This document shows, piece by piece, positions 43,342-44,268 of a DNA stretch of 64,000 nt. Source of the stretch: an uncultured Chromatiales bacterium (lineage in GTDB: Bacteria; Bacteroidota; Ignavibacteria; SZUA-365); NCBI GenBank assembly GCA_964388275.1, contig CAYLZD010000010.1, positions 8,023-72,022 of the forward strand, in the 5' to 3' direction. The position numbers were made by a program, and so were the translations under genes. Under the pieces are notes generated by a model. It was not told the DNA's origin, did not search any database, and worked only from the letters and a program-made list of their open reading frames with translations. The stretch's first letter is position 1, and every line of letters begins with the position of its first letter.

Positions 43342-44268
43342 ATGAACATCACGCCCGTCGATTTCCGTTGCATCCGCGCTCTCGGTGTGGCGCAGTTCTC
43401 TACGGAATCGCACGACACTTTTCAATATATCAGCGTCGGCGTTGCGATGAAAGACGAACTGATCAAATTGCGCGAAGTCGGGGACGCCGGAAGCGTCAAC
43501 CACATCCTGGTGCTCAACGATTCGGAGTTGCCGGTGTTCATAATGGACGGCGATATACTCCTGGGCGCAAAACAGAATCGAGTGGTCAACACATCCATCC
43601 TCCTGACGCCGAAATCGAAGACGACCATTCCGGTGAGCTGCATAGAAAGCGGCCGCTGGCGGAACGTGTCGCCTTTCTTCAGCCCGTCGTATTTCGCCGC
43701 CCCGATGTCCCTGCGGTCCTCCAAGTCCAGACAGGTGTCGGACAATCTGTACCGCCGCCGCGGGCATACTTCGGATCAGGGCATGATATGGAACATGGTG
43801 TCCGAACTGCACGAAACGCATAAGACCAGTTCTCCCACCGAATCTCTCAGCGATCTTTTTGACAGCCGGGAAAGCGAGTTCACGTCCTTCGTGGAGGGAT
43901 TCACCGCCTCGGCTGACGCCAACGCCCTTGCGATTTTCGAGGGACATGAACTGCTCTCCTTGGACATATTCAACCGCAGGGAAGTTTACGCGGAGTATTT
44001 CGGAAAAATTCTGCGCGGCGCGGCGGTGGACTTGTATTCGGCTAAACGGGAAGGAGCGGCGCCGGGAGAGGCGGAGGCGTTCTATAAAGCCGCGGAGAAT
44101 CTGGACACGCTCGAAGCCCTGCCGCGCGACACCCACGCGGGCGTCTCGATGGGCACTGAACATCGCTTCTCCGATGACGCGCGGGTCGGCTTCTCGCTGT
44201 ACTGCGAAGAGCACCTGATTCACTTCAGCGCAGTCCGCAATGAAAAGGACAAACACATCTGCTCGTGA
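43342..44268 (+). CDS. Conserved hypothetical cytoplasmic protein (309 aa), divergently transcribed from the WYL regulator.
   Basis: A perfect SD AGGAGG lies 5 nt upstream. No signal peptide. A conserved-looking block reads [53 protein letters not shown]. I cannot assign a family by eye. Confidence 0.7.
   Translation: [308 protein letters not shown]

Follow-up and report, generated by a model that had tools for sequence, protein, structure and literature searches.

The 64-kb stretch of contig CAYLZD010000010.1 analysed here (hereafter the window) probably holds a two-gene module in which a WYL-domain transcription factor controls a divergently transcribed gene of the ARPP-1 family through a palindrome between the two genes, responds to a nucleic-acid-derived ligand and governs the production of an enzyme. 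In the mechanism that we favour, a homodimer-type winged helix-turn-helix (wHTH)-WYL-WCX factor would have ARPP-1 as its single output gene and would most likely bind a 17-bp palindrome that lies 22 nt upstream of a predicted -7 box. Binding of the ligand to the WYL domain would switch ARPP-1 transcription on. RNA polymerase could be recruited as by DriD, the option that we slightly prefer, or repression could be lifted as with CapW/BrxR. To judge from DriD, CapW and PafBC, the ligand may be single-stranded DNA (ssDNA) or a related nucleotide or ADP-ribose species. The ARPP-1 product is most likely an enzyme with a putative Cys100 centre that includes Lys77, Gln78, Arg80, Asn83, Glu102 and Arg105; its substrate would be a sugar or nucleotide moiety, for example ribose/ADP-ribose or the damaged end of a nucleic acid. 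These parts differ in strength: comparison of related sequences supports ARPP-1 well as a direct target of the WYL regulator, the nucleic-acid-derived ligand is suggested by analogy, and a cysteine-dependent enzyme working on ribose, ADP-ribose or a damaged-DNA sugar is speculative. The features of the locus are collected in Table 1.

Table 1 Features of the WYL-ARPP-1 locus, in window coordinates
Feature	Position	Strand	Description or basis
wHTH (HTH_11)-WYL-WCX transcription factor	42315..43172	-	285 aa; Pfam, PADLOC
Divergent intergenic control region	43173..43341		169 bp, between the WYL and ARPP-1 genes
Perfect 8-1-8 palindrome GTATCATC-G-GATGATAC	43272..43288		17 bp; predicted WYL operator
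Predicted Bacteroidota-type -7 box TAGATTGC	43311..43318	+	TAnnTTGY/TAnnTTTG class; conservation in alignment A4
Shine-Dalgarno sequence AGGAGG	43331..43336	+	5-nt spacer to the ARPP-1 ATG
ARPP-1 (PF20208/DUF6569) gene	43342..44268	+	308 aa, single domain, cytoplasmic
Conserved core block, residues 54-106	43501..43659	+	Inserted beta-rich subdomain; alignments

The two genes and their products

The initial annotation, made from the letters of the window, had described the ARPP-1 gene as an unassignable reading frame for a cytoplasmic protein of 309 residues. The open reading frame (ORF) is real, but its product has 308 residues, since codon 309 is the stop. A Pfam scan assigned it to PF20208 (ARPP-1) with E = 3.3e-73 and 247 bits, against a cut-off of 27 bits, and the protein covers profile positions 11-296 of 297, that is, the family at full length. 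Other details of that annotation stood: the Shine-Dalgarno sequence before the ATG at 43342 is perfect, with a GGAG-like element also found 5' of the ATG in most orthologous loci of the promoter alignment, and a signal peptide is absent. The N-terminus contains no hydrophobic signal-like stretch, and residues 1-40 are modelled instead as the first two beta-strands of the fold (predicted local distance difference test (pLDDT) ~95, AlphaFold2). A 431-aa antisense ORF (42961-44256, - strand) shadows the entire ARPP-1 gene and would be chosen over it by naive longest-ORF calling; it is not a gene and is typical of DNA of ~60% GC.

At least 1177 relatives of the window protein were found in a search of 5.8 billion proteins, the closest non-identical one at 53% identity; nearly all are single-domain proteins of ~300-315 aa, mainly from metagenome-assembled genomes of Ignavibacteria and Bacteroidota. 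Among species-representative genomes, one per species, the relatives number at least 596 and come from many bacterial and archaeal phyla. Conservation was assessed in an alignment of 76 bacterial and archaeal ARPP-1 sequences from many phyla (~30-50% identity). Invariant positions are E45, V52, G75, K77, Q78, R80, N83, V98, C100, E102, R105 and W106, together with F113, Q146, W150 and L286 further on, while D69, N79, S99, R125, R275 and H294 are near-invariant. The strongly patterned block that had been noticed by eye corresponds to residues 54-106, the most conserved part of the family, which holds the invariant K77, Q78, R80, N83, C100 (codon 43639-43641), E102, R105 and W106. These eight residues are invariant also in a second alignment (A1), and C100 and Q78 among them correspond to the absolutely conserved cysteine and glutamine by which Iyer et al. 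define the family.

That definition comes from a computational study (Iyer, Burroughs, Anand, Aravind 2022, Viruses 14:1977, section 3.8; PMC9503650), in which ARPP was found to be unrelated to any characterised domain. The fold was described there as a core of duplicated four-stranded beta-meanders with a beta-barrel inserted in the first repeat, and this inserted beta subdomain carries the absolutely conserved Cys and Gln plus other polar residues (PMC9503650). Our AlphaFold2 model (pLDDT 91.2, predicted template modelling score 0.91) is compatible with that account in the order of its secondary-structure elements. A fold comparison, which the initial annotation had named as a check, placed the protein in no family: a Foldseek search with the model found no resembling solved structure (best E 0.16), and the ARPP family profile gave no match at E <= 1 against all sequences of the PDB. 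As modelled, the fold is without a solved relative and the structure gives no functional clue. Scans against NCBIfam, PHROGs and PADLOC likewise gave no match for ARPP-1.

Iyer et al. suggested that ARPP acts on ribose or other sugar moieties, possibly by SRAP-like covalent chemistry (PMC9503650). The Cys-Glu-Lys set of ARPP recalls the triads of amidases and nitrilases, only by analogy. In a metagenomic 364-aa relative (P0054) an ExoX-like motif (PF20600, E 2.6e-9) forms the C-terminal part of a fusion with the ARPP-1 domain, which may point to DNA-end metabolism. A phage origin of ARPP-1 was considered and rejected, with no PHROG match and a single, partial ARPP relative in a scan of viral contigs.

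The divergent neighbour was recognised in the initial annotation as a WYL regulator, and this holds: its product matches WCX (4.5e-15, residues 202-278), HTH_11 (1.1e-7, residues 25-63) and WYL (4.4e-7, residues 110-173) in Pfam, and WYL models in PADLOC (1.2e-23). All three parts of the architecture are thus present, an N-terminal HTH, a central WYL and a C-terminal WCX domain. Orthologues at 39-63% identity adjoin ARPP in 11 loci. The best match of the regulator among solved structures, by sequence, is Caulobacter DriD (7U02/7TZV/8TP8; E ~1e-4, residues 122-273). All characterised proteins of the wHTH-WYL architecture recognise palindromic sites and use the WYL domain to sense ssDNA; DriD, an activator, and CapW both bind ssDNA in this way, and CapW and by extension BrxR are repressors. 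In CapW/BrxR the arginines of an RWHVR motif contact the ssDNA (PMC11662680). The corresponding WYL strand reads GLWRVLA in the window and xWRL/VLA in orthologues, and the flanking arginines are absent. Because LWRVL takes the place of RWHVR, the regulator falls outside the CapW/BrxR repressor subfamily. Its ligand could be ssDNA, by analogy, or an ADP-ribose or nucleotide species as envisaged by Iyer et al.

A conserved palindrome in the intergenic region

The initial annotation had proposed that ARPP-1 is the direct target of the WYL regulator. Comparison of related loci supports this: WYL/WCX is the top family among upstream neighbours of ARPP (14/69), and a 7-3-7 palindrome occupies a fixed promoter position in the window and in 16 further loci. 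In an alignment of 16 orthologous promoter regions (A4), the only conserved elements of the intergenic region are this palindrome, the -7 box and the Shine-Dalgarno/ATG. The TATCA and TGATA halves of the palindrome are invariant, as is the TA..T of the -7 box, and the spacer between palindrome and box is 21-22 nt in every A4 locus (22 in the window), although its sequence is not conserved.

The conserved core of the palindrome, TATCAY-N3-RTGATA, has one exact match in the window; with up to one mismatch there are 2 matches against 0.2 expected, and the second, at 10190, lies inside an 814-aa ORF and was treated as chance rather than accepted as another operator. We surveyed 80 related loci with 8-kb flanks, the best matches among the at least 596 species-representative relatives. 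The exact core is present in 13 of them, and in 16 the core, with 0-1 mismatch, precedes the ARPP start by 65-92 nt, mostly 68-72; the distance in the window is 69 nt. Every locus that holds a relative of the window WYL gene also holds the palindrome (14/14). In the remaining loci (~60), which lack such a relative, the best core matches have at least 3 mismatches and are scattered in position.

The palindrome also follows the genes when they are separated. In locus L008 (5646-8903) a Fic + HTH gene with a SoFic-like PADLOC match is inserted between WYL and ARPP, and the palindrome occurs twice, at 6579 and 7931, 73 nt before the WYL start and 70 nt before ARPP. Three palindromes occur in L065, each 53-69 nt upstream of a gene for an AAA ATPase, a trypsin-tetratricopeptide repeat (TPR) protein or ARPP. 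This locus (683-7081), from a sister clade, contains the palindrome-preceded AAA ATPase (454 aa), trypsin-like protease with TPR (600 aa) and ARPP, and in L024 (7098-10699) a WYL gene, ARPP and a trypsin-TPR protein stand in a row; the two suggest that the WYL regulon of the sister clade is larger and takes in a protease and an ATPase.

The palindrome might instead be the site of another regulator or a shared promoter element, with the WYL gene a mere neighbour. This we consider highly improbable. It can draw on two loci in which the palindrome is seen apart from a WYL gene: L034, which has none within 3.2 kb upstream, and L018, where the contig stops only 860 nt upstream. The complete co-occurrence in the 14 related-WYL loci, set beside the scattered and poor matches of the ~60 others, argues the other way, as does the persistence of the palindrome with the WYL gene in L008 and L065, and a 17-bp dyad matches what dimeric wHTH-WYL proteins bind. 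On this comparative evidence of conservation and co-occurrence we infer, with good support, that the palindrome is the binding site of the WYL protein and that ARPP is under direct control of that protein, which probably also controls its own transcription. L019 lacks a WYL gene within 8 kb, and at the same position, -66 relative to its ARPP gene, stands a different dyad, GGATCA-N5-TGATCC (7935-7955), perhaps a variant operator recognised by another regulator.

The consensus of the -7 box and its position at -12 to -5 were established by transcription-start mapping in Flavobacterium (PMC9723704). If it applies here, transcription would start at ~43323, about 5 nt after the box, and the palindrome would span about -51 to -35 of the predicted ARPP promoter. 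A -33 TTTG element is not visible in any aligned promoter locus, and a scan of the region for sigma-70 consensus promoters gave no match, as is expected because the promoter is of Bacteroidota type. On the other side of the palindrome, no convincing -7 box for the WYL gene was found by eye. The initial annotation had likened the arrangement to BrxR/CapW-type control, but the geometry of the promoter is at least as compatible with a DriD-like activator as with a repressor. We lean slightly towards activation because this geometry is the same as that of DriD promoters; an operator placed over a promoter is equally compatible with repression.

Related loci, genomic context and competing explanations

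The survey bears out one half of the expectation that homologues of ARPP-1 would recur beside WYL regulators or in defence islands: the co-occurrence with WYL genes is recurrent, whereas defence-like genes are single cases. Among immediate upstream neighbours, WCX is found in 14/69 and WYL in 11/69, the next family being Sigma70_r2 with 4/69, and the PADLOC WYL models also match 14/69; downstream of ARPP no Pfam family recurs in the surveyed loci. A WYL gene lies within the fetched flanks in ~21 of the 80 loci. The window-type orthologue is adjacent and divergent in L001, L007, L010, L011, L012, L014, L016, L017 and L037. In L008 one gene intervenes, in L015 the orthologue stands downstream, and in L002 it is truncated by the contig end. 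More distant WYL subfamilies adjoin distant ARPPs in L029, L033, L049, L056 and L063, often co-directionally, in Acidimicrobiia, Phycisphaerae, Desulfobulbia and Syntrophorhabdaceae. The association therefore recurs across phyla and orientations and is not universal. ARPP proteins of the WYL-palindrome loci are ~32-50% identical to the window protein.

Several points weigh against the two-gene module as we propose it. The close ARPP relatives L004, L006, L009, L013 and L019-L023 have neither a WYL neighbour nor the palindrome, and with so many close relatives lacking both, ARPP does not need this regulator. The consensus used for the -7 box is that of Flavobacterium, applied by inference only to an Ignavibacteria-like genome. 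The ligand may not be ssDNA, because the WYL domain is divergent (Pfam E 4e-7) and lacks RWHVR. As for the enzyme, the fold searches gave no hint of its chemistry, and the arrangement of the invariant residues around one pocket is an assumption. A literature search found no paper naming DUF6569 and no experimental work on ARPP; the term ARPP-1 mostly retrieves the unrelated eukaryotic ARPP-16/19.

Some of the ARPPs that lack WYL and palindrome are of Ignavibacteria type (L021:4523-5224, L022:7099-7809 and L023:4583-5353). In L022 and L023 a gene for an extracytoplasmic function (ECF)-type sigma factor (Sigma70_r2) stands directly upstream of ARPP and co-directional with it, and the upstream ORF of L021 resembles these sigma genes in size and position and has no Pfam match. 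An ECF-type sigma factor may thus provide an alternative regulation of ARPP.

A third gene, X (~315 aa), follows ARPP in many orthologous loci (L007:2421-3368 (+), L011:8899-9855 (+), L002, L003, L012, L014 and L016); it is broken in L010 and L018 and encoded on the other strand in L015. In several loci, such as L007, L012 and L014, the X start and the ARPP stop overlap by 4 bp, which suggests translational coupling. The X protein matches PHROG phrog_1362 (unknown function, E 1.3e-13) and has no Pfam or NCBIfam match; its NSxxG...RxxCxNG motif is tentatively reminiscent of DUF932. In the window the 526 bp after the ARPP-1 stop (44269-44794) hold no convincing ORF, Rfam match or consensus terminator. 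A remnant of X in this gap was ruled out, as tblastn found nothing there; GC-rich hairpin-like sequences occur within it, for example near 44320-44345. In L037 (8001-8948) the ARPP frame is split into two ORFs in a long-read-type assembly, which could reflect a sequencing indel or a pseudogene; the adjacent WYL protein is 63% identical to that of the window.

The module sits among genes for TPR-thioredoxin, YbaK-type editing domain, BNR/type IX secretion system, membrane and immunoglobulin (Ig)-like proteins, YkuD and PurD. Gene order is shared with L001 (a 310-aa protein, TPR-thioredoxin, WYL, ARPP) and with L037 (TPR-thioredoxin, WYL, ARPP, membrane protein, Ig-like protein). The 310-aa protein of the window (39373-40305, +) has an acidic low-complexity middle and 53% identity, with synteny, to its counterpart in L001; it has no Pfam, NCBIfam, PHROG or PADLOC match. 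The GC content around the locus shows no compositional anomaly, and the window contains no tRNA or Rfam feature. Apart from the WYL models, PADLOC matches in the window are to PD-T4-6, mad6, the C3a189 'kinase' models, MkoA and PDC-M06B, with one ORF each; those to PD-T4-6, mad6 and C3a189 are attributed to a Ser/Thr protein kinase of the window. A defence island or mobile element was rejected for the window, given these generic single-ORF matches, the synteny and the absence of compositional anomaly, tRNA and Rfam features. In a domain scan of 45 ORFs, none of ARG, rhodanese-phosphatase, Macro, NADAR, chaperone, HIRAN or PF01522 is among the 25 of 33 Pfam families listed. Around the 80 related loci, a gene of the ARG-system type (a NADAR) is 1 of 138 immediate neighbours. 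With no ARG-type partners among the families listed and with conserved synteny, the window appears to hold a stripped-down two-gene form in a stable chromosomal setting.

The initial annotation had seen in the divergent arrangement the layout of a defence system under BrxR/CapW-type control. Spelled out, a CapW/BrxR-like repressor would silence ARPP, as a toxic or antiviral effector, until a phage infects or DNA is damaged, making the pair a minimal anti-phage system. The regulator does share the wHTH-WYL-WCX architecture of CapW and BrxR, the palindrome overlaps the promoter, and ARPP occurs in ARG-centred conflict systems with negative regulators (PMC9503650). Some relatives stand beside defence-like genes, each seen once (the SoFic-like Fic of L008, TIR, MzaA, DpdF, Cas6 and DrmD), and the regulon of L065/L024 includes the AAA ATPase and the trypsin-TPR protein. 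Such neighbours are compatible with a conflict role of the family and do not establish one. We nevertheless judge this explanation rather unlikely, and the defence role was not borne out in the window: ARPP has no PADLOC or PHROG match and is nearly absent from viral contigs, the genes around the locus are of housekeeping type, syntenic with L001 and L037 and free of compositional anomaly, and the RWHVR motif of the repressor subfamily is missing. The lack of a -33 element and the fixed spacing, moreover, resemble activator-dependent DriD promoters.

A metabolic role would make ARPP a housekeeping enzyme on a small sugar or nucleotide metabolite and the WYL protein a substrate-responsive regulator, with no part in conflict or damage. 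The same stable, syntenic setting among housekeeping genes fits this, as does the wide occurrence of this single-domain cytoplasmic protein in bacteria and archaea; the neighbours of many relatives are unrelated, and the pairing of secreted ARPP with a polysaccharide deacetylase points to general sugar chemistry (PMC9503650). Yet nucleic-acid ligands are what all WYL transcription factors characterised to date sense, partners from a metabolic operon do not recur, and the family is patchy, with variable and partly conflict-like contexts that are unusual for core metabolism. We regard this role as distinctly doubtful.

A role in DNA damage is a more specific version of the explanation that we favour. 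Here a DriD/PafBC/SiwR-like ssDNA-sensing activator would induce an ARPP that repairs or processes damaged or ADP-ribosylated nucleic-acid ends. DriD is the closest solved relative of the regulator and the operator geometry is like that of DriD promoters, the relative P0054 carries the ExoX-like motif, and a NADAR-DarT1-type gene adjoins one relative. Control of adjacent damage-response genes by WYL regulators is documented for SiwR (PMC10693628) and for an Acinetobacter WYL regulator (PMC13010146). Similarity to DriD is weak, however, and confined to the C-terminal part, the residues that contact ssDNA are not demonstrably conserved, and no DNA-repair gene lies in the window neighbourhood. 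SRAP-type thiazolidine chemistry cannot apply literally to the internal cysteine. This narrower explanation is possible, if tentative.

Bolder still, and in our estimation unlikely, is a minimal stress switch in which a DriD-like activator senses single-stranded or damaged nucleic acid and induces one enzyme of new fold, whose Cys-Glu-Lys(-Gln-Arg) centre would work on sugar-linked lesions. Such a lesion could be ADP-ribose attached to DNA or to protein, or else an end that is abasic or 3'-blocked. Were it correct, ARPP would represent a new class of nucleic-acid/ADP-ribose processing enzyme, and the simplest place to demonstrate this would be the present compact locus, whose 17-bp operator is defined. 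For the two-gene module in general, the interest lies in a widespread bacterial and archaeal protein with a confidently predicted fold and a predicted role in ADP-ribose- or nucleotide-centred conflict or repair. The operator sequence makes the inducing signal and the function of ARPP experimentally approachable, and the locus could inform whether uncharacterised WYL regulators activate or repress.

Comparison with known systems

An invariant cysteine proposed to attack a sugar aldehyde is what ARPP would share with SRAP/HMCES. In SRAP the N-terminal Cys2 forms a thiazolidine with its thiol and alpha-amine. The likeness was drawn by Iyer et al. (PMC9503650); the ARPP cysteine is internal (C100), and the fold is unrelated, with no PDB fold match. 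Because of this internal position, the SRAP analogy offers at most a general idea of the chemistry.

DriD has in common with the window regulator the order of HTH, linker, WYL and C-terminal dimer domain, and the predicted ARPP promoter is like DriD promoters in that the palindrome overlaps -35 at a fixed distance from the -10/-7 box and that no good -35/-33 element is present; the distance of DriD sites from the -10 box is the same in every promoter under DriD control. The similarity is limited to E ~1e-4 over the C-terminal half. DriD, moreover, runs a multi-gene damage regulon (didA, recA and others), whereas the window has one adjacent output. With CapW (of CBASS) and BrxR (of BREX) the regulator shares the same Pfam architecture including WCX and a dyad of ~17-20 bp, in the window a predicted operator, in the promoter of an adjacent target. 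It differs from them in that RWHVR is replaced by LWRVL/SWRLL and in that the target in the window is not a recognised defence system.

ARG-centred systems consist of ARG, a rhodanese-phosphatase, a Nudix/WYL transcription factor, chaperones and ARPP, and are predicted to counter viral ADP-ribosylation (PMC9503650). The window shares ARPP with them, and their WYL/Nudix one-component regulator is predicted to sense ADP-ribose or nucleotide ligands (PMC9503650). The ARG and rhodanese-phosphatase that characterise these systems are absent from the 25 of 33 window families listed, and neither recurs beside the 80 relatives.

Iyer et al. also reported three conserved two-gene ARPP neighbourhoods, with HIRAN, with a WYL-domain transcription factor and with a secreted PF01522 deacetylase (PMC9503650). 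The window is an instance of the second (PMC9503650, Fig. 7c), with the same family, Cys/Gln and HTH-WYL pairing and a compatible predicted fold layout; compared with the orthologous WYL-ARPP loci, it lacks the coupled third gene X. Both the ARPP family and its pairing with WYL are already published, as a computational description only, and because of this the window reveals no new kind of system. The published account contains no analysis of operator, promoter or orientation, and what is new here is a palindrome that is conserved, keeps a fixed distance to the -7 box and is duplicated where the two genes are split. Against that background the window provides a clean minimal example of the pairing: one regulator, one operator, one promoter and one output gene.

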